This document shows, in pieces, positions 5,265 through 60,144 of a DNA stretch of 64,000 nucleotides; position 1 is the first letter of the stretch; the number at the start of each line of letters is the position of its first letter. The notes below the pieces were generated by a model that saw only the letters and a list, made by a program, of their open reading frames with translations, did not search any database and was not told where the DNA came from. The stretch spans positions 32,001 through 96,000 of IMG/VR virus record IMGVR_UViG_3300035698_017294, one strand, 5' to 3'. Source of the stretch: a virus. Both the position numbers and the translations under genes were made by a program.

Positions 5265-5741
5265 CTATTTTTGCCGCATCAGTTGAGAAAGGTACCATGC
5301 CTTCAATGCGCGGTAGGTTGTTTTGTGGGGTATGGTTTTCCCCGCCCGCATGTTATGGATCGTAGTGCTTGTCACACCTAAGGTCAACGCAGCGGCTCTT
5401 TGGTTGTTGTTATGTGCTTCGATTAGCTTTACTACCATTTTTTCAGTTTCTGCTTTTGCCTTTGATGTTGAATGTGGAGGCCACTGAGTTCCTCCAGTCA
5501 GTGCGAAAATCCTAACTAAATCGTTCTCGTACTCCGGTACCAGTTTCATCATTTTGGCTATTTCGTACAGTTTAGCCATGTGCTTCTGTTGGGGGCGTGT
5601 GCCATTAATCCACCTGGCTATTTGTCGAGTATGTACGCCGACTTTGTTAGCAAGAATATCGGCCTCTATGCCCTGAATGATACCCTCTACTAACTCACTA
5701 ACGGTTACTGGATTGTTAACTGAATGGTCAAATGTTTGCAT
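5265..5741 (-). CDS. Tandem XRE/Cro-type HTH protein
   Basis: Two HTH-like units: LANKVGVHTRQIARWINGTRP and QRAAALTLGVTSTTIHNMRAGKTIP. Confidence 0.7.
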   Translation of the reverse strand: MQTFDHSVNNPVTVSELVEGIIQGIEADILANKVGVHTRQIARWINGTRPQQKHMAKLYEIAKMMKLVPEYENDLVRIFALTGGTQWPPHSTSKAKAETEKMVVKLIEAHNNNQRAAALTLGVTSTTIHNMRAGKTIPHKTTYRALKAWYLSQLMRQK

Positions 5742-5751
5742 CTAATGCTCC

Positions 5752-6363
5752 TTACTTAAAACTGTGTATGTACTTAATAGGATAGGCGTCTTCGCGAATC
5801 ATATGCAGGAATACCTGACTACCGATGGTAGCTATGATCTTATTGCCCTGCTGAATTATGTTCTGATCTAGCTCATACTTCATCTGGCAACTTGTGTCTT
5901 CGCGTCCGGTTTTTACCGTATCAAGTAAATCTTCAACTTTCGCCTTGGGATGAGATGTGAACAATGCTACGGTTGCACCTTCAGATCTCATATCAATGAA
6001 CTTAAACTTGGTTGTGTCCCACAGTTCAAACATATGCCTGCGGAAACTGGTCCCATCAACACAACTGATAACGAAATCGTATCCATCGTCCAAGTATTCT
6101 TGTAGGTCTGTTACCCGTCCGATTATTCCTTTATGAACCTGTAGGTCTTTTTTCCATCTTGTCTTAAGCGCCTTTACCTTGAATTCGCCAATATCGTCTT
6201 TGGTAAAATTCTGATACTTGATTACCTTTTCTGTAACCATATCATCATCTATCATCGTGAACAGGTAATTATTAGGTATCTGGTCGGCGATCATCAGTTC
6301 GTGCATTTCATACATGAAGCGGCTACCAATGCCGCCTACGCCAACTACTAAAACTTTTATCAT
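5752..6363 (-). CDS. ThiF/MoeB/E1-family ubiquitin-like activating enzyme
   Basis: VVGVGGIGS (GxGxxG), IDDDMV..YQ, GEFKV.AL, VISCVDG..FR, FIDMRSEG, candidate catalytic Cys in DTSCQ; no Zn CxxC pairs. Confidence 0.9.
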   Translation of the reverse strand: MIKVLVVGVGGIGSRFMYEMHELMIADQIPNNYLFTMIDDDMVTEKVIKYQNFTKDDIGEFKVKALKTRWKKDLQVHKGIIGRVTDLQEYLDDGYDFVISCVDGTSFRRHMFELWDTTKFKFIDMRSEGATVALFTSHPKAKVEDLLDTVKTGREDTSCQMKYELDQNIIQQGNKIIATIGSQVFLHMIREDAYPIKYIHSFK

Positions 6364-6836
6364 TCGTGTATCTCCAACTTTACTGATGTATACCCATCAT
6401 TTTCATAATTCCACTTCCATCCGCGAAGTATTTTATCGCCACCGCCCCAGATTAGGTATGGCACGTTGTGTCCGTTACCTCTCCGGTATTCTCCAGAATC
6501 AATAACTGATGGTATGCCAACGCTATGGGGATGATTATGTACCGACACGGCTTGTGTTTTGCTTTTTAGATCCATGACAGATGTATTTTTCAATACATTC
6601 ATCATTTGCTGCGGATCCATGCGATAGTCAGCAACGTCTTGCTGATGTTCGGATAGTAGGTTTGTGACCCAATGGAAATTCTCTACATGAAGAATAACAT
6701 CCTGCTTTCCAAAATATACGCCGGTAAAAAATCCACAGAATTCACGCTTGTACGCCATATCTAATGTAAACAGATGCTTTAGTAGGTGGCGCGGTACATG
6801 AATTAATTCAACACTTAGTGTCTTATGCTTATTCAA
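6360..6836 (-). CDS. JAB/MPN+ (JAMM) metalloprotease
   Basis: REFCGFF (catalytic Glu) and HNHPHSVGIPSVID (HxH-x7-S-x2-D). Confidence 0.9.
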   Translation of the reverse strand: MNKHKTLSVELIHVPRHLLKHLFTLDMAYKREFCGFFTGVYFGKQDVILHVENFHWVTNLLSEHQQDVADYRMDPQQMMNVLKNTSVMDLKSKTQAVSVHNHPHSVGIPSVIDSGEYRRGNGHNVPYLIWGGGDKILRGWKWNYENDGYTSVKLEIHE

Positions 6837-6864
6837 AACTTAAACTCCTGTGACTTAAATTTAT

Positions 6865-6892
6865 AAAGAAAGAGCGGGACTAGCCCGCTCTC
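6865..6892 (-). terminator. Intrinsic terminator between the Ubl and JAB genes
   Basis: GAGCGGG-ctagt-CCCGCTC followed by TTTCTTT on the minus strand. Confidence 0.7.
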
Positions 6893-6904
6893 ATTGTTGC
6901 CAAA

Positions 6905-7621
6905 TTAAATACGCAGTGCGTTGCGGAGATCAGCGTCATTTTGCTGAATAGTTCCTTCTAGTTGTTTCTTGATTGCACCAACGATATGATTTCTAGCGTT
7001 AAGGATGTCGTAGCGATTTTCATTATCAACCGTTACTTTTACCTTTTTATTTGCAGGATTCAATCCGACTAGCATATGGGCGTGGGGCTTAATTGACCCA
7101 GCGAACTTAGCTTCCATACGGCGCTTATCTACGCACGCAGCTACCAAGCTCATCTTACCTGTATTTAGGTCAGACATCACTTCGTTATACTCATCCTGGG
7201 TTAGCTGTACAAGTCCTGCTTCAATATACTTATACAATTCATTACGCCAAGCGAAGATCTCTGGAAGGCGATCTTTGTTAAGCTGAACTTCAATAACGTC
7301 AGGCTCGGTTTTAAAAGTGATAGCCACACAGGTGTCACCAATGTAGGGGAAGTTCTCATCTACATTAAGCACAATTGCATAGTTCTCAGCTCCACCAACT
7401 AAGGCTGCCGACAAAACAATGTTCTCTTCACCAATCAGGTCATCAGTGGTAATAGTGTTAACGTCCTGCATGCGGCCGTCAACAAACAACCATTTATCTT
7501 CGTCTTTTGCGATCTCTTGAATCTTTTTAACAGCCTCATTTGGAATCAGGCTATAAGGTGTATCACCCTCAGTACTCATCACTGCGAAATCTATCTTTTG
7601 GATATTATCTTCCATCTTCAT
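6905..7621 (-). CDS. Ubiquitin-like domain (aa 1-77, ends ALVGG) fused to a duplicated alpha/beta domain
   Basis: WLFVDG..DL..E.IVLSAALVGG is ThiS/MoaD/SAMP-like. GG lies at aa 76-77 (nt 7391-7396). Adjacent to JAB and E1. Confidence 0.75.
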   Translation of the reverse strand: MKMEDNIQKIDFAVMSTEGDTPYSLIPNEAVKKIQEIAKDEDKWLFVDGRMQDVNTITTDDLIGEENIVLSAALVGGAENYAIVLNVDENFPYIGDTCVAITFKTEPDVIEVQLNKDRLPEIFAWRNELYKYIEAGLVQLTQDEYNEVMSDLNTGKMSLVAACVDKRRMEAKFAGSIKPHAHMLVGLNPANKKVKVTVDNENRYDILNARNHIVGAIKKQLEGTIQQNDADLRNALRI

Positions 7622-7633
7622 TCCTTATGTATT

Positions 7634-9829
7634 CTAAAGTGTAGTTATTTTGTCTGCAACCATTGAATCGTTTGCTACGGCCAGCATTCTAGCAACCAGC
7701 ATATCTCTACCGGCGACTCTGTGGCCTTTACCAACGATGCAAAGGTAACTGAAATTCTCATCATAAACCTGATGATCATTTCCTACTTCAACGTAGTATG
7801 TTTGTTTTTTTCCCTCTACCTTGTAGGCCTGCATGGTGCCGTATTGATTACGTGTCGGTATGTCTACCAGCTCGGCATTGAGGGATTTTACAGTTTTTGC
7901 CAGCAGGACCTCCGACTTGCGGATCACTTCGTTATATTCCGCTAATCCGGCTTTAAGAAGGTTAGTAACTGCTGACTGCGGTATGGTGATCAGCGCTGGG
8001 TCACCAAACAATGCAAACATATCCTCTAGGGATCTGCATCTTGTTATTTTTGTTTTGAATTGCTTTATATTTCTAACGTGATGCAAAGTCTTATTTTCAT
8101 CATTACCCTTTAGATAATTTTTACCGCGCTTCCTGGTAAGATGAAATACATAGTGCACTGGAATGTTTAAGAAGTTGTCACGATAGGATGCACCGAGTCC
8201 CGTGGCTATGGTGTCATGCAGCTCCATTGAGCAATTGGTAATTGACTTTAGGAACGCATCATACTCTTCATCTGTGTTGTAACACAAAGCTGTAGCAATA
8301 ATTTGCGAAGCCTCTCCCAGGTTTACGCGTACACCATTTATAGTTAGCTTGCTCTGCCGTGTTCCAACAGCTGTCAGCTTAGTAGTACGTAACCCATTCA
8401 CGTTAACTGTTCCAATTTTTGCTTTGAATGACGCCCCTTCGGTACCGGCTCGTATCCCCTGCTCAAGATTTGCACAAAACGCTGTCACAATGTCATCGAA
8501 CTGTACGTTTGCTATACCGCTGTTCCATGTGTATTGTTCTTTATCTCGCAGATATACGCCAATAGCTGATTTGTAGCGGTCATCTAGTACATCATTTATC
8601 TTGTATTCTATGAGTTCAATTCGCTGCGTATCATAGGTTACAGTACCATTTTCGTAGGTTACACCATTGAATTTCAATATCTCGTCTTTTGCAAGTTTGG
8701 ATTGTAGGGCTTTTCGCAGACCTTCCTTGAGCTCTTTTTCGTCATCCGCTTTTCGCATAGCAACTAGCATAGGCAATGAAGTCTCATAGAATTTATCTAT
8801 ATCAAGAGCCAATGAATTTTTCTCACCTACTTCATCTTTGTATGACCGCCAAGCATCGACCCACTCAACCTCCTCCAAAATATTGTTAAGCACTTCGGCT
8901 GAAAACGTGCTACCGTCAATAAAACAAGTAGGAGCGGCCTCGCGGGGGTCTTTAAATAAAAGCATTCCTGCGTCACAATATGGGTATATTTCACTGTCGT
9001 CCGAAACGGTCATTGATTTAGCCAGCATATGTTCATTAACATCAGCAGCATTATCAACGTCTTCTGCATTTTGAAGGTATTGGTTTTCGGCAGACCGGTA
9101 TACTACTGTTCTAACACCATCTTTTTCAGCTACCATTGTGATTTTACATATGCACCACCTATAGGGCAGTTTGTGTATAAGAGATGTCATGTCCTTATGC
9201 TCTTGCAGAGTGGTAAACGCTTCGGTGATTTTATACCCATCTTCTCTGAATTGCTCTACTGCCGCTGGAGTGTCTAGGCGGATTTTTCTGTTCTTATTAG
9301 CCACCTCATAAAGGCTATCAAAATCTGCACAATGCATTTCGATATCTTCAGCTAGAAAATTGATTTTGGAAAAATAGCTCAGCTTTCCAAGCTGTTCTAG
9401 CTTAGGCAGCTCATCTGATCTCCACGAGCAGAGTTTATTACCAGATCCGTATCTGGACACTGATGGCATGGTGAATCTAATAAGATACTTAGATGCTATT
9501 GCACCGTGATCAGCCAGTTCGGATCGTGCGTGTGACTCTAGAATCACTCTAAGTAGTGGGAGTGGGTCGCGGGTGGTATTAAATGTGGCTTCGCACCTTA
9601 GCCACCGTGCTGGAGCGGCATGAATACTACGATCGAAATGTACTGAAAACGGAAAAAAATGACCTACGTTAGGTTTTAAATCCCCTTCAACCCATTCGTC
9701 TATTTCTTTTGATAATTCATCAACTTTAGTAAAGAATTCATCAACTGCGCCTTCTTCGCTGAAGTTGTATATGGCCGCCATGCCCTCTATTTGCTCTCTA
9801 GATCTTCCTTCATACTTAATTTTAGTCAT
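7634..9829 (-). CDS. Large hypothetical protein; C-terminal domain with YLCIV..D..VARMLAVAND; co-transcribed with the Ubl gene
   Basis: 731-aa ORF 12 nt upstream of the Ubl gene; no family recognised. Confidence 0.8.
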   Translation of the reverse strand: MTKIKYEGRSREQIEGMAAIYNFSEEGAVDEFFTKVDELSKEIDEWVEGDLKPNVGHFFPFSVHFDRSIHAAPARWLRCEATFNTTRDPLPLLRVILESHARSELADHGAIASKYLIRFTMPSVSRYGSGNKLCSWRSDELPKLEQLGKLSYFSKINFLAEDIEMHCADFDSLYEVANKNRKIRLDTPAAVEQFREDGYKITEAFTTLQEHKDMTSLIHKLPYRWCICKITMVAEKDGVRTVVYRSAENQYLQNAEDVDNAADVNEHMLAKSMTVSDDSEIYPYCDAGMLLFKDPREAAPTCFIDGSTFSAEVLNNILEEVEWVDAWRSYKDEVGEKNSLALDIDKFYETSLPMLVAMRKADDEKELKEGLRKALQSKLAKDEILKFNGVTYENGTVTYDTQRIELIEYKINDVLDDRYKSAIGVYLRDKEQYTWNSGIANVQFDDIVTAFCANLEQGIRAGTEGASFKAKIGTVNVNGLRTTKLTAVGTRQSKLTINGVRVNLGEASQIIATALCYNTDEEYDAFLKSITNCSMELHDTIATGLGASYRDNFLNIPVHYVFHLTRKRGKNYLKGNDENKTLHHVRNIKQFKTKITRCRSLEDMFALFGDPALITIPQSAVTNLLKAGLAEYNEVIRKSEVLLAKTVKSLNAELVDIPTRNQYGTMQAYKVEGKKQTYYVEVGNDHQVYDENFSYLCIVGKGHRVAGRDMLVARMLAVANDSMVADKITTL

Positions 9830-9848: not shown

Positions 9849-10238
9849 TTACTCTTCGTCTTTGAATTTCTCGTGCTCACAAGCTATGATAGCCTTGTAC
9901 CCATTTTCCTTGGGCCATGTGGACATTTCTTTTCCAATTAATTCCGCGGGCGTGACTACACCCAGATACTTCATTACTTGTACAAGCACGCTTCTCGCGT
10001 CTAGTTTGCCTGCTGGATCGGTTGATATCCACATCCCTTTGTGTGTAGGATCGCCTGCCCTATCGAGGATCCAAGCTTCATCAATTTGGTAATCGATTCC
10101 GTTTGGGTCACTGCATATAAGGACAGCTTTGGTAGCGACCTTATCAGGTGCCGTGTTAACTTCTCTCGATTCTACGTTCGTTATTTTCAAGTCTTTTCGT
10201 GAAGATCCTATCTTCATATTCAGGATGTTGGTTTCCAT
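9849..10238 (-). CDS. Hypothetical protein
   Basis: ORF, operon packing. Confidence 0.65.
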   Translation of the reverse strand: METNILNMKIGSSRKDLKITNVESREVNTAPDKVATKAVLICSDPNGIDYQIDEAWILDRAGDPTHKGMWISTDPAGKLDARSVLVQVMKYLGVVTPAELIGKEMSTWPKENGYKAIIACEHEKFKDEE

Positions 10239-34366: not shown

Positions 34367-35518
34367 TTAGTCTTTATTCTCTGCCTTTTCTTTTTTATCC
34401 CACCACATTAAGTATTTTGATGACTTCGCTTTAAATCCTACGGACTGGTCTAACTCGGATCTCCATACAAATCCCTCGCGCATAACGTTTGGGTTAAGGT
34501 AAGACATGGTATTACTTTCAACGTTTTTACCATCTGCCTCATCGAGGACTTCTTCTACGGTATCGTATAGCTTGCAGCCGGTATGAAACAATGGAACCAT
34601 TTCGAATCCATTTTCAATGCAGTACCAGTCGAGGTCTTCGTAGTTTAGGTACGCGCCGGTAGTTAAATTTTTAACCGAGTAAACATATAACTTTATAGCG
34701 GGCAGTTCGTAGATGTTCTTTTGGATTCCTGGGCCTACTAATTCGCCCTGTACTGCTATTGCTGGGTATTTTTTTGAATTGGCTTTTAACTTTTCCTCAA
34801 TACGATTCTCTAAAGCATATCTCCACCACGTAGAACCGTCAGGTTTTGGACGTTGGAAGTTGTGCGAGTATACACGGAACTTCGGCCTTTTACCTTTTGC
34901 GCGGTACTCATAAGTAGCTGCTTGTCCCTCAAGTTTTTCTGTCTTGTAGAATCGGTGATCGGGGTAACACTTCTGAATGTGAGCAAATGCTGCCTGAACA
35001 TTAGTCTCGTCTGATTTGCTAATGTCTTCGGGATACAGGTTCTTCCTATTAGGATTACCCTTCATCCAGAAGTATAGTTTACGAAACCACTCTTTCTTAA
35101 GCATGTACTTTAACCATGCTGGCCGTTTTTGCGGCTTTAGCATTTCAGCCAAATATTCGGGATCGTACTTGCGTACTTCTAGTGTGTCAGTTACATCCAC
35201 ACCTTCTTTTACTTTTACCTTTTTAGGTAAAATAGGGGTTGAGAATACAATGCCCTGACTGAACACTCCTGCCATTTTCATGTTACGGATACGGAATCCG
35301 TTCCATTTTGGGGAGAAGCAGTTGCTACGTAAAAATTCAAATTCTTGTTTGATTGGTAGCAGTGTATCATATTCACAGTAGACTGCAAGATCGCCTACTT
35401 GAAATTCCCCTTTTCCGACAATTACCTTCCACCCAAGGATAGATGCTAGCTCTATTCTATCCTTATTGGCGATTGGTTCCAATGCCGTTATCTTCTGTAT
35501 CGTAGCTAATTTTCGCAT
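34367..35518 (-). CDS. ATP-dependent RNA ligase, DRB0094 family (N-terminal OB fold + Rnl2-like)
   Basis: MRKLATIQKI..I..KDRIE, SQG, KSDE, TEKLEG (motif I), QGELVGPGIQKN, REGFV, FKAKS..YL. Confidence 0.9.
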   Translation of the reverse strand: MRKLATIQKITALEPIANKDRIELASILGWKVIVGKGEFQVGDLAVYCEYDTLLPIKQEFEFLRSNCFSPKWNGFRIRNMKMAGVFSQGIVFSTPILPKKVKVKEGVDVTDTLEVRKYDPEYLAEMLKPQKRPAWLKYMLKKEWFRKLYFWMKGNPNRKNLYPEDISKSDETNVQAAFAHIQKCYPDHRFYKTEKLEGQAATYEYRAKGKRPKFRVYSHNFQRPKPDGSTWWRYALENRIEEKLKANSKKYPAIAVQGELVGPGIQKNIYELPAIKLYVYSVKNLTTGAYLNYEDLDWYCIENGFEMVPLFHTGCKLYDTVEEVLDEADGKNVESNTMSYLNPNVMREGFVWRSELDQSVGFKAKSSKYLMWWDKKEKAENKD

Positions 35519-44489: not shown

Positions 44490-44879
44490 TTATTCCACAA
44501 TTTTTTGTTTTAATTCATCAAATGTTTGATGATGATAGCTCCGTTTGTGTGTGGATGGATCCACATGTACGAACACTATTTTATCAATTGAACAGATGAC
44601 AGTGTGATCTGTTTTATTGCGTACTTCGCAACAAACAGTATATGAAGTCTCGCCTACGTCGATAAGGTCGATACCAATCTCAATAAGGTCACCCTTACGT
44701 GCGGGTTTCTGAAAGTTCACTTCGGATATGAGTTTTGTGACAATGCTTTTCTTGCCTGTCTTATACATAACCCATGCAGCCGCTTCTTCATCCACCCATG
44801 CTAGTAATTGTCCACCGAATAAAGTATCATGGCTGTTTAAGTCTTGATACCTAATCAAATGGCTTGTAGTAAATTCCAT
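44490..44879 (-). CDS. Hotdog-fold acyl-CoA thioesterase
   Basis: DLNSHDTLFGGQLLAWVDEEAA, VT..ISEVNF..P..GD.I, VGETS. Confidence 0.9.
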   Translation of the reverse strand: MEFTTSHLIRYQDLNSHDTLFGGQLLAWVDEEAAAWVMYKTGKKSIVTKLISEVNFQKPARKGDLIEIGIDLIDVGETSYTVCCEVRNKTDHTVICSIDKIVFVHVDPSTHKRSYHHQTFDELKQKIVE

Positions 44880-46174
44880 TACATCCCCCTCGTTTTGCCG
44901 TGCACATGTTTTACTGTTGGAAAGCGTAACGAATATTGCTTCGTTTTCTGGTCTCGAGTTTCTTCAAAATACTGGACTGTAATTAGGTTGCCAATTATAG
45001 CACCGGGGTTGTAGTGGTATTCTTGCCTCTGTTCCAAAGACCATCCAGACCCCACGCCAACCTCATTGTCGCGATACATTATAATTGCTTTAGTCATTGT
45101 AGTTATTGTGTCTTCTAGTCCGGTTATTTTATTAATGATGCGGAACGGCCCAGACTTGATTCTGGTTACTGTAAACTCTGCATCGTGGAACTTTTTAAGC
45201 TTTAACAGGTTTTGCGTACGCTTACCTTCGTACGGCACATCTTTGCGAAGCATTGCACCTTCCCAGCCCTTTTTATTAGCGGCCGCAAAGAAGTCTTCAA
45301 GGTCTTCAACGCTGTGAACTATACGCTGGTTTAATGGTTTTAGGATCGTATTTTTGCGACCAATTGCTTCATATCGTAAGATGCGCTTTGTTAAGTCGGG
45401 GGATTTCTTTTTACCCTCAAACTCGTCAAGTGTTAGCATATCAAAAATCATGTATCTGGGATTTTGTATCACATGCTTTTTCTTGCGTATCTGCTTCATT
45501 ACGCTAGCAAAGTCTTCATTGCCGTGATCATCTATGATACATATTTCGCCATCAAAAACAGTATTACGTAGATCTAGTTTTTTAATTTCTTCAATAACCA
45601 GCCCGAGTGTTTCTATGGGCTTGCCTGTTCTAGTCCACGCTTTAATATTTCCATCAGCCCCAACTATGATAATGCAGCGCACACCATCAAGCTTCCGTGA
45701 TATATACCAGCTAGTTTCATATTTGCCGAACGTTACTCTGTGTATAAACTCTTTGTACTTCTCGGCTAGCGCAACCTTAAACTCCTTTATAGAGCCGGGC
45801 CAGACTTGGTTAATTTGTTTCACACCCAATCGGACCTTTAGGTTTTTATCCAACATCATGTGGACGATGTCTGCATATACTGGATACTCAGCTATAAAAT
45901 GGTTAATATAGTTATGTGCCTCGTGCCCTGTTATTTTGCGGGAAGCTAAATCATCAAGCAGTGAGAATATATCCAAATGTATTTCACAGTCATCTTCCAT
46001 ATACGCTGCCTTCGTTAATGCTGCAGATGTTATCCCGTATGTCATATCAGGATCGTGTGCGTATATAAAATACTTTTTCAAATCTTCGTAACTTGCCAAG
46101 ATGATTTTCTTAGCTGTCATCGAATTAGTTGTGTTTAGTTCATCTAAACATTCTTGTAATCTCTTTAAACTCAT
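44879..46174 (-). CDS. lig: ATP-dependent DNA ligase
   Basis: SRKLDGVRC, VFDGEI, IFD, WEGAMLR, LLKLK, VGSG, SLRFP. Confidence 0.95.
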   Translation of the reverse strand: MSLKRLQECLDELNTTNSMTAKKIILASYEDLKKYFIYAHDPDMTYGITSAALTKAAYMEDDCEIHLDIFSLLDDLASRKITGHEAHNYINHFIAEYPVYADIVHMMLDKNLKVRLGVKQINQVWPGSIKEFKVALAEKYKEFIHRVTFGKYETSWYISRKLDGVRCIIIVGADGNIKAWTRTGKPIETLGLVIEEIKKLDLRNTVFDGEICIIDDHGNEDFASVMKQIRKKKHVIQNPRYMIFDMLTLDEFEGKKKSPDLTKRILRYEAIGRKNTILKPLNQRIVHSVEDLEDFFAAANKKGWEGAMLRKDVPYEGKRTQNLLKLKKFHDAEFTVTRIKSGPFRIINKITGLEDTITTMTKAIIMYRDNEVGVGSGWSLEQRQEYHYNPGAIIGNLITVQYFEETRDQKTKQYSLRFPTVKHVHGKTRGM

Positions 46175-48869: not shown

Positions 48870-49757
48870 TTAAAAATTACCGTAGTTAACCTGTAAGCAA
48901 GTTAATCCGAGTTCCTTTCGCCACATATCTACAACTTGATCACGATCGTCCAGTACGAAGTCAACGTAATACTTGCCCTTCACATGTGCATCATATAGCT
49001 CACGCTTTACAAGGCTGTCCTTGCGATCGTCGCCAGGGTGCCGCATGAAAAGATCGGTATACTTAACTTTGTTATCAAACAACCATTCACGGGTGAGTGT
49101 CTCACATGATCCGTCGCGCCCAGATAAAAGTATCACGTGGCGAGTCGGATCTGCCATAATAAGGTCGTAAATAGGCTGACTAAGCGTGTCTAGCTTAACC
49201 TTCTGGAATTCAAATGGCCCGCGATTACCGCGATGCAGCGCAAGAGTTCCATCAAGATCACAAATAATCGCACGTGGTAGAGCAAGATCCTGTACCACCA
49301 AGTCAAGTTCAACATCTGGTTCTTTGATAAAGCTATCGTGGAAATCACGTATCACCTTTTCACCGACAGAGTTAGGGCAAACTAGGTCTCGGCGGATGCA
49401 CTCTTCTATAGGTACACTAAGGAAGTCCGTGTTGAGTTGTGCTACAACTGGATTTTTGCAACCCTCTTCCTTGTTGATCTCCTGCGCAATCTGCTGCATG
49501 CGAGTCCAGTGCTTTGGGTGTAGATTTGTATCGTCTACAATAACACTGAAGCCCCCCTTTACTATTTGCTTTACCATCCAGTCGCGTGTTTTTAACACAA
49601 GCTTTTCATTGTAAGGCGTCCACTTACCACCTAGCATCATACGCAGGTCGTCTTTGTTGACACGCTTGATCTGGCCAGGATGATCATTTACTTGTTGCTT
49701 CGCCCATGTCGACTTTCCCGACGCTGGAAGTCCCTTGACTACTATTATTTTCCTCAA
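48870..49757 (-). CDS. pseT: Polynucleotide 5'-kinase/3'-phosphatase (T4 PseT-like)
   Basis: GLPASGKSTWA, RVNKDDLR, DDTNL; CDLDGTLA, LSGRD, DDRDQVV. Confidence 0.93.
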   Translation of the reverse strand: MRKIIVVKGLPASGKSTWAKQQVNDHPGQIKRVNKDDLRMMLGGKWTPYNEKLVLKTRDWMVKQIVKGGFSVIVDDTNLHPKHWTRMQQIAQEINKEEGCKNPVVAQLNTDFLSVPIEECIRRDLVCPNSVGEKVIRDFHDSFIKEPDVELDLVVQDLALPRAIICDLDGTLALHRGNRGPFEFQKVKLDTLSQPIYDLIMADPTRHVILLSGRDGSCETLTREWLFDNKVKYTDLFMRHPGDDRKDSLVKRELYDAHVKGKYYVDFVLDDRDQVVDMWRKELGLTCLQVNYGNF

Positions 49758-50808
49758 ACTTGATCCCCCTTTTTATTATTTTCCATATATACTCACCGGC
49801 TTTATCAAATCGCCTATCCCAAATATGGAACAGTAGGGCTGGATGCCGCTCCCGCTGAAAGCACTTAGCTACATACTTGCGCTCAGTATCAGGTGAAAGT
49901 TGCATCTTTTTAAGCGTGTTTAAGCCGCTGCGGATTAGATCGTCGTGCTTTTGATAAAACTTTGCGCATGTTTCGTCAATCCAATCCCAATGCTCTTCAC
50001 CAGCGCCCTGGCGCAGGCTTTCAATCGGTTCACCTTTTATTATATAATCCAGCACAGTTTTCCCAGTCAGAGACATGCGTATACGTTGAAGCCGTTTGTA
50101 CTCCTCGAACTTGACCTTCATTCTAAAGTCTTCTTTTGGGTAATACAAAACAAAGCCTTCTTTGTTCGTAAGATTAAGCTTTTGCGCACCAGCAAAGTCA
50201 CGTGTTGCAATTGTATCAGCTGGGTATCGGTGCGGTGTGGGAAATCCTGGATTGTGATACGCTGTTTCTCCAAGCCTGTTGTCTATTGTTGCTACCAATA
50301 TAAGTTCTCTACGATCGCCGTAATTTATAACTAAACGATCTTCGGCGCGGTCGTCCGGATAGATGATTTCGAATTGATATGTCAACCCGTCTTTATACTC
50401 TAAGCCACTATACTTTTCATTGAGGATTTTATTGGCTTGTATTGCCTGCTTGGAATCGAACGATCCACGTGTCGCTATGCCGCGGTAGTCACCATAGGCA
50501 TACATAATGCCAGCATAGCCGTCCAGCTTATCGTATATTTCGAACTCGCTAATCGGTATTTCGCCGTCTTCTAGCTCATCAAAGTTAAAAAACTTGTACA
50601 GCGGGCGAGAAATAACTTTCCAGTCATCATCAACAATCAATCCTCTGCACATCCTTACCGACAAGGGCCAGTACCAATCAAACATGGCCTTCTTGGTATA
50701 GTTAAGTATCGATAATGGAATGGCTGGATCTGGATGATGCTGTAATCTTACGTACCCAGCATCCATCATATACTCAATATCTTTGCGCAGAGCGCCATCG
50801 ATAATCAT
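49684..50808 (-). CDS. RNA ligase 1 (T4 RnlA-like)
   Basis: LNYT, CRGLIVD, RPLYKFFN, DKLDG, ATRGSF.S.QA, FEII, EGFV, MKVKF..Y. Confidence 0.9.
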   Translation of the reverse strand: MIIDGALRKDIEYMMDAGYVRLQHHPDPAIPLSILNYTKKAMFDWYWPLSVRMCRGLIVDDDWKVISRPLYKFFNFDELEDGEIPISEFEIYDKLDGYAGIMYAYGDYRGIATRGSFDSKQAIQANKILNEKYSGLEYKDGLTYQFEIIYPDDRAEDRLVINYGDRRELILVATIDNRLGETAYHNPGFPTPHRYPADTIATRDFAGAQKLNLTNKEGFVLYYPKEDFRMKVKFEEYKRLQRIRMSLTGKTVLDYIIKGEPIESLRQGAGEEHWDWIDETCAKFYQKHDDLIRSGLNTLKKMQLSPDTERKYVAKCFQRERHPALLFHIWDRRFDKAGEYIWKIIKRGIKFEENNSSQGTSSVGKVDMGEATSK

Positions 50809-56223: not shown

Positions 56224-59200
56224 TTAGCATAATGAGAGTCCACATTGTGGGCACATTGTGCAACCTTCTTGCATTATCATTTGTGATCCACAGGACTCAC
56301 ATATTTTATTGGTTTGTGTACCATTCGGGATGTAGGATTTGAGTAGTTTGTTAAGTATAAAAATAAATGAACCTAGCGGCACTTCTGCCGTGTCTACTGC
56401 ATCCGTTATTTCCGTTATCGATACGTTGTGTCGCAATAGCAGCCCCAACATCCGACATATACGTTCTATGTTCGATTGGTGGTAGCTCTTTGTTTCCAGC
56501 TCTTTAATGTAGGGTTTTAGGAACTTACGTTTATGTGCTACCTTCCTTAGCAAGTCTAGCGTCTCCTTTGTAACAACTGTTTTTTCCGTGGAGTTAGTAT
56601 GCGTGAATACAGCTATTGGCTTTTCTTTGTTAGACGTCGGAAATGCTAGTATCACGTACCATTTCTTATTTTCTGATTTAATTAAGTGACCTCGTGCATG
56701 GAATGTCTCTGGAAACTTTACATTATACAGAATCTCCAGCTCTTCGTGCTCCTTCTTGGATAAAGTTTCCATAACAGTTGTCATGGTTCCCGCTCTGTAT
56801 GTCGTAAGTCCCTTAATGCCTTTATCGTATGCTTTCATGTAGAAGTCGGAGAAATCATCAAAAGTAAAGCTAGCAGGAATGTTAACGGTTTTAGACATAC
56901 CAAGATGCAGGTATTTGTATATAACCTCCATAACCGACAAGTGCTCATCAATGCTTAGGTCTTCTGCGCCAGCATAAACTCCTTCATCGTTTAATTCCAT
57001 CATACGACCAATTTCTACATTGTCAAGAACCCATTCCCACCCATAATCACGAATCGATTCTGCTTTGGTCATCCCACGATTTTTATCTATTTCATAATTA
57101 ACGCTGCCATATCGACAGGTTAGCACCTCTTCATCACCGCGTAGTTCCAGTTTAAAATCATCTGTTTCAAACCACTCGCCTTTTTTGGCGTCGGGGAATT
57201 TTAAGTCGTCATATAGTAAGCCAGCAATATCCCCGTCGGTTACCGTGACCCATCTTGTATATTCTTTGCAGAACACAGGCTCTCCGCCTCCAGACATTAG
57301 CCGCGCTAGTATGCCAGTATTTCCAGTAGGTGCCAATGTAGTAAGGTGTGAATTCCGTAGCCCGTGCTTTTTCATACCCCCTTCTAGGGCTGCTTTAGTT
57401 GCTGCAGGTAGAGGTAATGCTTTCCAGTAGTCTGTATTTATGTATTCATCATAATCAAAGTGCTCAAATTGGCCCTTTTCCTTAGCCAATAATACTGAGG
57501 CCGCGTACGAGTGATAAGTTATCCATTCGTATATTTCTTCTAACAGTTCCAGGAATTTAGGAGAGCCGTATCGTAAGCCCGCCATGAAGCCCAAAGATCC
57601 CAGACCCATAACGCCAAGGCCTATACGTCGGAACGCCAGAGAGGCCGTTTCTAGCTCTTTCAGGGGATATGTAGTTATGTCCAGTATATTGTCTAAGAAT
57701 CGTACCATTATGGGTATATCGCGGGCCAGCTTTGCGAAATCAAAAATACTTGATTTTGAGTCCCAGTAAGCCGGTAAATTGATGGAGCCAAGATCGCATA
57801 CTCCTGTAGCCATAGGCACCTCACCACACTGTAAACTATTTATATAATGCGTGAACTTTTTTTCAACTCCTTCAACTTTACATGCAGTAAAAAAGTTATG
57901 AAAGTCATCTACGGTTCCATTATAAACATCTTCTTTGCCAACATGTGTGACTGAAACCACTCTGTGATTGAAATTAACAGCAGCTTCTTGTAAAGCCCTA
58001 TAAGTTGGGAATGGGGAAGTCTTTCCAAACCTAATTGGTACTTTATTTTCTTTGCACAGTTCTTCGAATTCCACTTTCATAGGATTTTTTTTTAATTTAA
58101 ATTTAAGGTCGGTATAAAGCTTTAGTTGCGCTTGCCTCGCATTTTGTTTATACTTTTCCTTTTCTATGCGTTGGCCACATGTAGCGGAGCAAACGCCCTG
58201 TTCGCGTCTAGTATAAGTTACATTGAAAGAACTGCCACACAATTCGCATTTTTTATTTATCCTAACTTGATTCCTTTCATCAAAATAAGCATCATACCCA
58301 GAGGCAAGCGCCTCCTTATAAGTAAGTAATGCCTTTTGACCGACTTCATCAAAAGATTCAAAACCGGCGTCAAGTGCAGCCCATTTGGCTAATCCATCTA
58401 TAGCGCCTAGATGATTTACTCGCCAATCGGAAAATTTTTGTGGCAATCCATGTTCTTTTGCATAGGCCCACCATTCGCGACTACCAAAACGACGACCTTC
58501 TTGTTTTGTGAGTATTACAGCATGTTTTTTCAAGTCCTCGTTAGTGTATCCAGAATAACGTCCATTGCCTGACCCGGAAACCGACTCAGACATATTATCA
58601 TGGTATCTTTGTTTCTCTTCGTCACTGGCATTTTTATACCAACGGTTCATTGGATTCTTTTCACCGCGCATATCTTCGCCGTGCAACTTATCATGCGCTT
58701 GTTTGGTCATCATTTCTAAATTAGCCGGCCTATTATTTTGGGCATTTCGGTCCTTATGGTGGATTACATGCGCAGCTGGAATACTCTCTAAATTATTATG
58801 AAATTGGCAGATGAACCTATGCTCTGCACAATGAGTTTTTTTATCTCCGTTCTGAAGCCAAATGTATTCTTGAGAATTAGAATTTGCTCCTGGAAAAATT
58901 CCTTTAATGGTTTTAAAAGATTTCGTTACAATACTTAAACTATCTCCAGGAATCAATTTAGCAGCTTCGCGGTAATCGCCGGAAGTCAATTTAAATTTGT
59001 GATTTTTTGTAACACGTGTTTTACTGCCATCATCTAATAGTACTTCGTAGATATCCTCATGCCCCGTAAATCTAGGATGTCGCATATATCTAATTGCAAT
59101 TCTATCTTTATCATCATAGCAGAATACTGGAACGTCTTTGCCGTCGTCTACGAGAGTTTTTATTGGTACATTTCCACGACCGTCTGCTGTATATACCAGA

Positions 59201-60144
59201 GTATCCCCAGTGATACATGGGTTAGTTTGGAAAACCTTTTCCGCGTAACTCATCGGATTCATTTTGTTTACTATATCTAAAAATAAAATGCCCGGTTCAT
59301 TGCGAGTGTATGAAGCTGTCATTAGCATATCATACAGTTCCTTGGCCTTTATAGTTTCGTATACGATAACTGGATAACCTTTAGCATGCCATAATTCTAG
59401 GTCCCCGTTCCATTCTTCCTCATACTGCTCATACGTAGTATCCGGATAAACCAGATCCCAGTCTTTATCATCTTTTACACATTGCATGAAGCCATCTGTG
59501 ACACCTACAGACATGTTGAACTTTGTTAGAAAGTCCTTTTTCAGTTTCGCATTTATAAAGTCCTTGATGTCGGGATGCCATATACTCAGCACGAACATCA
59601 TGGCACCTTTGCGTAGTTTCTTTTTAAGGTCGGTGCGCTCTGCGTCACGATCTAATTTCGCTTCGCCGCCACCACGTGTGATGACTGCGGACACCTTATC
59701 CCATATCTCTGCAAAGGCAACTGGGCCAGGAGTTGTGGATTTAATGCCCTCAATAACAGTACCAGAAGGCCGCAGATAAGACAGGTTAGTTCCGTAACCA
59801 GCTTCACTCTTTAGTATGTGGGCTGCCATCTTAATCTGATTGAAGATATTTTCCAAGCTGTCTACATCTTTTATCCCATTGTCGGCTGGATGCATTGTAG
59901 TACAGTTAATAAGTGTTGTGTTCTTGTAGGTTGTGCCGGCATTTGCAATTATGCGGCCACCGGGGATAAATGGTTTTAGTGTTGGTGATAATATATTTAA
60001 AAACGAGTTATATGCTTGTTCTTTTTGCTCAGGAAGTTCTGCTGTTGCCGCAGCGTGTGCTACACGTTCCCAAGTCTGTTCTTCTGATTCACCGTTGAAT
60101 CTATAATTAGTGTCCCACAGTTCGTGCGGCAAATTACTTGTCAT
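56224..60144 (-). CDS. nrdJ: Class II (B12-dependent) ribonucleotide reductase with intein
   Basis: PGGRI.ANAG, NC, GA.M, FNMSV, EPGILF, TNP^CGE, CDLGSINL, RRIGLG, APTG, SKTVN, KGLT.YR, terminal CxxC; no R2 gene nearby. Confidence 0.93.
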   Translation of the reverse strand: MTSNLPHELWDTNYRFNGESEEQTWERVAHAAATAELPEQKEQAYNSFLNILSPTLKPFIPGGRIIANAGTTYKNTTLINCTTMHPADNGIKDVDSLENIFNQIKMAAHILKSEAGYGTNLSYLRPSGTVIEGIKSTTPGPVAFAEIWDKVSAVITRGGGEAKLDRDAERTDLKKKLRKGAMMFVLSIWHPDIKDFINAKLKKDFLTKFNMSVGVTDGFMQCVKDDKDWDLVYPDTTYEQYEEEWNGDLELWHAKGYPVIVYETIKAKELYDMLMTASYTRNEPGILFLDIVNKMNPMSYAEKVFQTNPCITGDTLVYTADGRGNVPIKTLVDDGKDVPVFCYDDKDRIAIRYMRHPRFTGHEDIYEVLLDDGSKTRVTKNHKFKLTSGDYREAAKLIPGDSLSIVTKSFKTIKGIFPGANSNSQEYIWLQNGDKKTHCAEHRFICQFHNNLESIPAAHVIHHKDRNAQNNRPANLEMMTKQAHDKLHGEDMRGEKNPMNRWYKNASDEEKQRYHDNMSESVSGSGNGRYSGYTNEDLKKHAVILTKQEGRRFGSREWWAYAKEHGLPQKFSDWRVNHLGAIDGLAKWAALDAGFESFDEVGQKALLTYKEALASGYDAYFDERNQVRINKKCELCGSSFNVTYTRREQGVCSATCGQRIEKEKYKQNARQAQLKLYTDLKFKLKKNPMKVEFEELCKENKVPIRFGKTSPFPTYRALQEAAVNFNHRVVSVTHVGKEDVYNGTVDDFHNFFTACKVEGVEKKFTHYINSLQCGEVPMATGVCDLGSINLPAYWDSKSSIFDFAKLARDIPIMVRFLDNILDITTYPLKELETASLAFRRIGLGVMGLGSLGFMAGLRYGSPKFLELLEEIYEWITYHSYAASVLLAKEKGQFEHFDYDEYINTDYWKALPLPAATKAALEGGMKKHGLRNSHLTTLAPTGNTGILARLMSGGGEPVFCKEYTRWVTVTDGDIAGLLYDDLKFPDAKKGEWFETDDFKLELRGDEEVLTCRYGSVNYEIDKNRGMTKAESIRDYGWEWVLDNVEIGRMMELNDEGVYAGAEDLSIDEHLSVMEVIYKYLHLGMSKTVNIPASFTFDDFSDFYMKAYDKGIKGLTTYRAGTMTTVMETLSKKEHEELEILYNVKFPETFHARGHLIKSENKKWYVILAFPTSNKEKPIAVFTHTNSTEKTVVTKETLDLLRKVAHKRKFLKPYIKELETKSYHQSNIERICRMLGLLLRHNVSITEITDAVDTAEVPLGSFIFILNKLLKSYIPNGTQTNKICESCGSQMIMQEGCTMCPQCGLSLC
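57829..59217 (-). mobile_element. 463-aa intein with HNH endonuclease in nrdJ, ending in Gln
   Basis: TNP|CITGDT..VTKNHKF (block B)..EHR..IHHKD.N..NN...NL (HNH)..VYNGTVDDFHNF..YINSLQ|CGE. Confidence 0.92.

Follow-up and report, generated by a model that had tools for sequence, protein, structure and literature searches.

A four-gene phage cassette that may activate and conjugate a ubiquitin-like protein through an E2-like partner

The archaeal SAMP/UbaA/HvJAMM1 and Thermus TtuB/TtuC systems combine a small beta-grasp protein ending in Gly-Gly (GG), a single MoeB-like activating enzyme (E1), and a JAMM peptidase, with no canonical conjugating enzyme (E2). These systems double as sulfur carriers, are encoded in cellular genomes, and have no counterpart of the large partner protein described below. 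In bacteria, conjugation of ubiquitin-like proteins (Ubls) has recently been established as an anti-phage defence, through Cap2/Cap3 of the cyclic-oligonucleotide-based anti-phage signalling system (CBASS) and through Bil (BilABCD: Ubl, E2, JAB deubiquitinase, and E1; bioRxiv 10.1101/2023.09.04.556158; PMC10557695). An earlier survey of prokaryotic Ubl operons (Iyer, Burroughs, and Aravind 2006, PMC1779556) sorted them into sulfur-related operons (rows 4a-e), the lambda tail genes TAPI/TAPK (row 5), and E1/E2/JAB operons (rows 6a-e). Across the literature we searched, prokaryotic Ubl operons belong only to cellular or defence systems, apart from lambda tail TAPI/TAPK; the jumbo-phage overview by Iyer et al. 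mentions neither E1 nor JAB, and no description of a phage-borne E1/JAB/Ubl cassette with a comparable large partner was found. Here, we describe such a cassette on the minus strand of a 64,000-nt stretch of viral DNA (positions 32,001-96,000 of IMG/VR record IMGVR_UViG_3300035698_017294; hereafter the window), whose parent virus record is 106 kb long with an estimated completeness of 56%.

The cassette encodes a 731-aa protein that we call BIG, a Ubl precursor (pro-Ubl), a JAB peptidase, and a minimal E1, and we consider it rather probable that these four genes form a virus-encoded pathway of Ubl activation and conjugation in which BIG serves as an E2-like carrier. The conjugation reading is based on folds, motifs, invariant residues, strict co-occurrence, and a predicted Ubl-BIG interface, and from these we infer conjugation rather than sulfur transfer. 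Within conjugation, the choice between BIG as a true thioester carrier and BIG as a substrate or reader is about evenly balanced.

By its model scores the cassette appears to stand outside Bil, Cap2/Cap3, and PRTRC, and by analogy it would work in a logic like that of Bil and archaeal sampylation. It shares with Bil a beta-grasp tag of the GG type, an E1 of the ThiF type whose Cys is conserved, a JAB, and (here inferred) a Cys carrier, all in one co-directional cassette. Unlike bacterial Bil, however, it is phage-encoded and lies within a replication module, its E1 is much smaller (203 aa), it has no stand-alone E2 and instead a protein of ~700 aa whose last ~100 residues are weakly UBC/UEV-like, none of the five proteins encoded at the locus is hit by a Bil model of PADLOC, and the phage Ubl family is without a Pfam model. 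With the SAMP and Thermus systems it has in common the GG-ended beta-grasp, the single E1, the JAMM peptidase, and the lack of a canonical E2, and the nearest model of the phage JAB is a desampylase; in contrast, the phage E1 reaches only 17.5 bits on the NCBIfam model of the SAMP-activating E1, against a cut-off of 450. The PRTRC systems of plasmids and integrative and conjugative elements offer a similar mobile-element context for E1 and JAB, and PRTRC_ThiF is the best named model for the phage E1, yet the score falls far under the cut-off and no ParB or other PRTRC components were seen. The operons surveyed in 2006 follow the same beta-grasp, E1, and JAB logic and, as in TAPI, the phage precursor has a C-terminal domain after a Gly-rich junction; unlike them, this cassette lies outside a tail module, its JAB has no NlpC domain, the rhodanese and E2 families of those rows are absent, and BIG is not described there. 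Finally, type II CBASS Cap2/Cap3 (PMC10097602) pairs an E1-type adenylation domain with a JAB, and Cap2 structures match the phage E1 profile (E about 3e-5), whereas the phage cassette has no CD-NTase and no fused E2, and its modifier is a dedicated Ubl rather than an enzyme's own C-terminus.

The cassette and its recurrence in related phages

Every gene of the region is on the minus strand. Between 9829 and 5265 this strand holds five open reading frames (ORFs), encoding in that order proteins of 731, 238, 158, 203, and 158 aa, and the first four make up the cassette. The initial annotation had described four contiguous co-directional genes, and both the ORFs and the motifs it read in them (ALVGG, JAMM, and SCQ) are as it stated. 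The features of the cassette are as follows:

7634-9829, minus strand: BIG, 731 aa (an ORF whose homologue adjoins the Ubl gene in all related loci)
7637-7930, minus strand: BIG C-terminal domain, aa 634-731 (helix, beta-meander, Cys697, helix), a candidate E2-like (UBC/UEV/RWD-like) and putative Ubl-binding domain
7739-7741, minus strand: codon of BIG Cys697
6905-7621, minus strand: pro-Ubl, 238 aa
7391-7621, minus strand: predicted Ubl domain, aa 1-77 of the precursor, a beta-grasp ending in ALVGG (AlphaFold2 [AF2], Foldseek, and homologues)
7391-7396, minus strand: codons of Gly76-Gly77
6908-7390, minus strand: predicted tail domain after the GG, aa 78-238, two beta3-alpha2 repeats (AF2 secondary structure)
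6360-6836, minus strand: JAB/JAMM metallopeptidase, 158 aa, with a TTG start after AGGAG (Pfam Prok-JAB)
5752-6363, minus strand: minimal ThiF-type E1, 203 aa (Pfam ThiF)

Related loci were collected from IMG/VR, 16 by Ubl sub-alignments and 41 by an alignment of BIG, and deduplication left 27 BIG, 26 E1, 23 JAB, and 25 Ubl sequences. BIG, Ubl, and E1 stand side by side in every locus (27 of 27 distinct cassettes) and JAB in 26 of the 27, almost always in the order BIG-Ubl-(optional gene)-JAB-E1; because this gene order recurs across related phage loci, the arrangement is far beyond chance. The synteny in other phages that the initial annotation had called for was thus found, as was its idea that the large protein is a partner in the system, BIG lying beside Ubl and E1 in all related loci. 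Variants are few: loci L121-L124 have the order Ubl-BIG-x-JAB-E1, with JABs that carry H-T-H-P...S-x-x-D just upstream of E1; the Ubl of L120 is 78 aa long and ends in ...SVGG; and one distinct cassette (L092/L093) has no JAB within it and a Ubl that stops exactly at the GG. One relative of the E1 lies on IMG/VR contigs of 140 kb and 189 kb in the same five-gene order, with the Ubl precursor junction reading ...GGAE.... Neither a megablast of the cassette nor tblastn of BIG, E1, pro-Ubl, and a stand-alone Ubl gave a match among GenBank phages, and a BIG-pattern scan of 185,579 prokaryote genomes returned no relative.

In some relatives an extra gene of 230-270 aa sits between Ubl and JAB (L005:8248-9027, L013:8285-9091, L015:8370-9191, and L016:8315-9004). 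These genes fall into three unrelated groups, one of which is matched weakly by a transcriptional repressor in PHROG, and they could be lineage-specific accessory factors or targets. We considered them as split-off tail domains of the precursor and rejected this, since nothing in them resembles the tail family and they are of three unrelated kinds.

Ubl precursor, JAB peptidase, and E1

The 238-aa protein, in which residues 71-77 read SAALVGG, had no match in Pfam, PHROGs, PADLOC, or NCBIfam, and a word-index protein search retrieved only the protein itself. A phmmer search of 1.84 billion representatives gave 56 matches, one of which (P0044, 925 aa with cadherin-like repeats) we set aside as spurious. 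Nineteen matches are only 68-86 aa long, and 11 of these 19 stop exactly at N-A-L-[VI]-G-G, the rest extending 1-14 residues past the GG, while ~30 homologues carry an extra domain after the GG as the window's protein does. Among the sequence evidence, nothing speaks more strongly for a cut of the fusion after Gly77 than the stand-alone homologues that end exactly at the GG. Gly76 and Gly77 are also the sole invariant columns in an alignment of 52 homologues. Tails beyond the GG, compared among 31 homologues, are mutually related and consist of one or two repeats, always placed after the GG; no separate tail-domain gene was found in the loci, and no clear fold match was found for the tail. Among the 25 distinct phage Ubls, 16 stop at the GG, seven have 1-3 extra residues, and two (those of the window and L003) have a tail of ~160 aa.

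With the family alignment as input, AF2 modelled the 238-aa protein at a predicted local distance difference test score (pLDDT) of 92.5, giving strand-strand-helix-strand-strand-(short helix)-strand over residues 10-72, followed by a linker of low confidence (71-80) and by two beta3-alpha2 repeats. The best Foldseek matches of the Ubl in the PDB are SUMO, ubiquitin, NEDD8, and ISG15, with probabilities of 0.97-0.99 and E values of 0.02-0.1. On these models, residues 1-77 are predicted to be a ubiquitin-like beta-grasp. None of the 52 homologues matched a named Ubl family (Pfam ubiquitin, ThiS, MoaD, Prok_Ub, Multiubiq, and others) at E values up to 1, and as judged from sequence Pfam has no model for the family of the Ubl. 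The initial annotation had let its idea stand or fall with a beta-grasp fold at residues 1-77 and with a conserved GG; the AF2 model and its SUMO, ubiquitin, NEDD8, and ISG15 neighbours agree with the first, and the GG is invariant in the 52 homologues and in the 25 phage cassettes.

More distant homologues include tandem poly-Ubl genes of two to three repeats, each ending in V-G-G, on marine metagenome contigs of up to 214 kb (L020-L084, e.g., L050:7986-8621). Their neighbours look cellular or archaeal (an RFC-like clamp loader, TYW2, a Na/solute symporter, and a succinate dehydrogenase flavoprotein). We rejected these homologues as part of the phage cassette because the marine contigs look cellular and have no E1, JAB, or BIG within 8 kb.

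The JAMM protease proved to be intact, as the initial annotation had noticed: the protein matches Pfam PF14464 Prok-JAB at 25.4 bits, above the cut-off of 25, and its zinc site (E32, H100-x-H102-x7-S110-xx-D113) is present in the window and invariant in 23 distinct sequences, the motif stretch reading H-N-H-P-H-S-V-G-I-P-S-V-I-D. Its nearest NCBIfam model is desampylase, with an E value of 2.6e-7 and a score under that model's cut-off.

Similarly, the minimal E1 with its SCQ cysteine, Cys159, is borne out by a match to Pfam PF00899 ThiF over residues 3-190 (36.1 bits, where the cut-off is 28.1). Among 26 distinct sequences the residues without variation are G8, G10, and G11 (GxGGIG), D39, D41, K62, D103, R108, C159, and R190, and the nucleotide-binding GxGxxG, ribose Asp, phosphate Lys, and Mg Asp align with those of UBA3 and of further E1s. 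In place of the ATP-binding Arg of the S-N-L-x-R-Q motif stands Tyr50, within K-N-L-x-Y-Q and at least 90% conserved; in the window's E1 the Asn ahead of it in this motif is also changed, to Val. Cys159 lies in D-T-S-C-Q, 56 residues past the Mg-binding Asp103, a spacing that we take to be like that of Asp130/Cys187 in MoeB and Asp127/Cys184 in ThiF, and it is the candidate acceptor of the activated Ubl. The 203 residues hold no CxxC zinc motif, rhodanese domain, or ubiquitin-fold domain (UFD).

When the phage E1 profile was run against the PDB, entries 9egb/9egc came out on top and many solved E1s matched over the Rossmann half, with MoeB and ThiF ranked below UBA3, Cap2, and UBA2. Of the named models, NCBIfam TIGR03736 PRTRC_ThiF scores best (E 2.9e-13), at 49.7 bits against a cut-off of 144.75 and over residues 2-118 only, and PADLOC gave weak Cap2-type 'E1-E2' matches to the Rossmann part. 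A word-index search with the E1 retrieved two relatives that are 65-70% identical.

The large partner protein and the proposed pathway

BIG belongs to no family in Pfam, PHROG, PADLOC, or NCBIfam. Its N-terminal ~230 residues are poorly conserved and the remaining C-terminal two-thirds well conserved, with D286, N503, E506, C516, S534, C697, V699, R714, D721, T730, and L731 invariant in 27 distinct sequences; the conserved Cys and His residues are C516, C533, H538, and C697, and K701 is only at least 90% conserved. AF2 modelled BIG at a pLDDT of 66 overall and 70-90 in the C-terminal half, where the last domain is predicted to run from a helix through a beta-meander and an invariant Y-I-C-I-V-D-K strand to a final helix. 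The structural neighbours of the last ~100 residues are UEV and RWD (E2-like) domains, at a weak resemblance. Foldseek with BIG gave nothing above noise against the PDB, a profile of the C-terminal domain matched no PDB sequence, and the Atlas returned only hits of low template-modelling score. The HPN motif that stands upstream of the Cys in classical E2s is absent from BIG, the alignment there reading V-Y-x-Y-P-x-G-x-Y-I-C-I-V-D-K, and some prokaryotic E2-like families are likewise without the His (Iyer et al. 2006, PMC1779556).

Complex prediction brought BIG and the Ubl together, with the tail of the Ubl set against the segment around Cys697. BIG 440-731 with Ubl 1-77 reached an interface score (ipSAE) of 0.62, against 0.26 for the best control, a mark attained by 58 of 80 solved complexes and by 2 of 110 mismatched pairs; the runs share at least 77% of their contacts, with a partner pLDDT of 78 or more. 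On the BIG side the predicted interface involves only the C-terminal domain (631-650, 696-701, and 703-731, including C697 and K701), and on the Ubl side the sheet face and the tail 71-77. The model supports binding of the Ubl to BIG and is consistent with the Ubl tail reaching Cys697 or Lys701.

Separately, Pfam DUF7737 is weakly similar to BIG ~668-706 (7634-7840) in 4 of 14 homologues (best E 0.0035), which we treat as a lead only, and the nearest structures to the Atlas's low-confidence model of BIG are DUF4132/DUF7737 bacterial proteins. A distant link of BIG to this uncharacterised bacterial family is possible.

In the pathway that we propose, JAB would cut the 238-aa pro-Ubl after Gly77, releasing a 77-aa tag with a free Gly-Gly and a 161-aa tail domain. 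E1 would then adenylate the Gly77 carboxylate and probably load the tag onto Cys159, from which it would pass to Cys697 in the small UBC/UEV-like C-terminal domain of BIG. BIG would thus act as an E2-like carrier, perhaps as a combined E2 and E3, whose variable N-terminal part may pick the targets, and the tag would end on lysines of host or phage proteins. JAB may also take the tag off again, making recycling possible. It is quite possible, if somewhat short of probable, that large uncultured phages in this way run their own E1-to-E2-like conjugation during infection, tagging host or phage proteins (e.g., replication or transcription factors) for host takeover, by means of a Ubl family and of a ~700-aa protein uniting carrier and specificity functions, both without described relatives.

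Three alternatives have to be weighed against this pathway. Within tagging, E1 alone might transfer the Ubl, with BIG as a dedicated substrate (e.g., at Lys701) or as a non-covalent receptor or reader, a scheme that we hold to be unlikely. Archaeal UbaA activates and transfers SAMPs without an E2, and an E2-independent scheme would fit the absence of a recognizable E2 family in Pfam, in PADLOC, and in the scan of the record (UQ_con and Prok-E2_B were not found in its 106 kb, 56% complete, and control genomes gave no match either). It would also fit the UEV and RWD neighbours of BIG's C-terminal domain, which are non-catalytic, ubiquitin-binding versions of the E2 fold, the presence of K701 besides C697 in the predicted interface, and the archaeal desampylase model nearest to JAB. 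However, Cys697 is strictly invariant across the 27 distinct sequences, unlike K701, and an invariant Cys beside a bound Ubl tail is rarely kept by a mere substrate. Sulfur transfer, the chief competitor outside conjugation, which would have the Ubl thiocarboxylate donate sulfur to a nucleotide, a tRNA base, or a cofactor, with BIG as the sulfur-using enzyme and JAB maturing the carrier, seems to us improbable. JAB-type enzymes that mature a sulfur carrier exist in QbsD and Mec+, the E1 Cys lies at what we take to be the ThiF/MoeB Cys position, the module that houses the cassette is one of replication and nucleotide metabolism, several Cys and His residues of BIG are conserved (C516, C533, H538, and C697), and the sulfur operons of Iyer et al. 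2006 (PMC1779556) show the same makeup of Ubl, E1, and JAB with no E2. Yet, as the initial annotation had reported for the neighbourhood, neither E2 nor sulfur-pathway genes turned up: rhodanese, Aminotran_5 (cysteine desulfurase), and ATP_bind_3 (PP-loop ATPase) were not found in the 106-kb record, although host enzymes could still serve given its 56% completeness, and the scanned flanking ORFs of relatives (ribonucleotide reductase, phosphoesterase, sigma factor, and DNA polymerase) include no sulfur enzyme. Further, the E1 is without a rhodanese domain, BIG matches no ThiG, MoaE, CysM, or TtuA-type family, the phage E1 profile ranks conjugating E1s (UBA3, UBA2, and Cap2) over MoeB and ThiF, and the predicted docking site of the Ubl is a UEV-like domain.

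The third alternative is counter-defence, in which the cassette would jam or reverse host Ubl immunity (Bil or CBASS Cap2/Cap3), with JAB stripping conjugates or the Ubl acting as a decoy. In its favour, Ubl systems of hosts act against phages (Hoer et al., bioRxiv 10.1101/2023.09.04.556158; Jenson et al., PMC10097602), and PADLOC matches the phage E1 weakly to Cap2 'E1-E2'; but a deconjugase alone would do for such a purpose, yet a complete co-evolving set of Ubl, E1, and BIG is kept, the sole gene ever lost is JAB, and the Ubl family is unrelated in sequence to any Pfam Ubl family, all of which makes this the most improbable account of the cassette. The initial annotation had offered two versions of a virus-side system, one tagging host or phage proteins and the other countering host Ubl defence; the tagging version gained support, with conjugation as the inferred chemistry, whereas nothing specific was found for counter-defence.

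If the conjugation pathway is true, prokaryotes would have their first example of Ubl conjugation used offensively by a virus, and with it a new class of E2-like enzyme. Such a phage-side kit, conserved, seemingly complete, and seated in the replication module of many large uncultured phages, would show that phages, too, tag proteins, in parallel with the eukaryotic viruses that manipulate ubiquitin. Three untouched families are involved, namely the GG-ended Ubl, a minimal E1 of 200 aa whose Arg finger is replaced by Tyr, and a large protein whose candidate E2-like domain would be new; they are small enough for biochemistry and bear on the evolution of E1-E2 relays. The natural variants (bare GG, short extensions, a 160-aa tail, and the JAB-less lineage) provide ready controls for the processing step.

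Genomic setting and neighbouring genes

Around the cassette lie genes for DNA polymerase I, a sigma factor, a phosphoesterase, dUTPase, a RuvC-type resolvase, RNA and DNA ligases, and ribonucleotide reductase, and because such replication and nucleotide genes surround it, the phage origin and replication-module setting of the cassette are well founded. Its position inside this replication and nucleotide-metabolism module suggests that expression is early or middle and that the role is intracellular, not in the virion. In relatives the cassette is flanked by ribonucleotide reductase and a ~140-aa protein on one side and by phosphoesterase, sigma factor, and DNA polymerase I on the other. Three further features adjoin or interrupt the cassette in the window:

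6870-6892, minus strand: terminator-like hairpin (9-bp stem, 6 G-C pairs, weak T-tract)
5265-5741, minus strand: tandem helix-turn-helix (HTH) protein, 158 aa (two HTH_3 stretches, Pfam)
9849-10238, minus strand: 129-aa protein ('p140') upstream of BIG, probably a replication-module gene and not a cassette component

The hairpin, which separates the stop codon of the Ubl gene from the start codon of JAB, is a consensus match only, and such sites are no more frequent in the region than in shuffled sequence; it might attenuate read-through and so leave Ubl and BIG in excess over the enzymes. The tandem-HTH gene, pointed out in the initial annotation as following the cassette, does contain two HTH_3 stretches, but it is not conserved with the cassette: no homologue was found beside it in any related locus, and the gene is outside the conserved unit.

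The p140 protein is one of a large family confined to viruses (clusters of 217 and 454 members), and it has a DUF669-like model and a nearly invariant C-terminal Cys. A homologue lies upstream of BIG in most relatives, and the family is spread far wider among phages. As a candidate for the missing E2, this ~140-aa upstream gene was rejected because it belongs to that wider phage family, is DUF669-like, and is replaced by an unrelated ORF in L018.

Elsewhere in the window, the ribonucleotide reductase large subunit (56224-60144, minus strand) is 1306 aa long and contains an HNH-endonuclease-like segment at residues ~430-500, which suggests an intein or an inserted homing endonuclease; the ribonucleotide reductase of a relative (L018:1783-5160) is interrupted likewise. 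Two RNA-ligase-family genes and an ATP-dependent DNA ligase lie inside 16 kb (34367-35518, 44879-46174, and 49684-50808, minus strand). A large glycan-synthesis cluster, so annotated by the first readers at ~11.4-27.7 kb, stands between the cassette and the ribonucleotide reductase gene, two elements that are adjacent in relatives.

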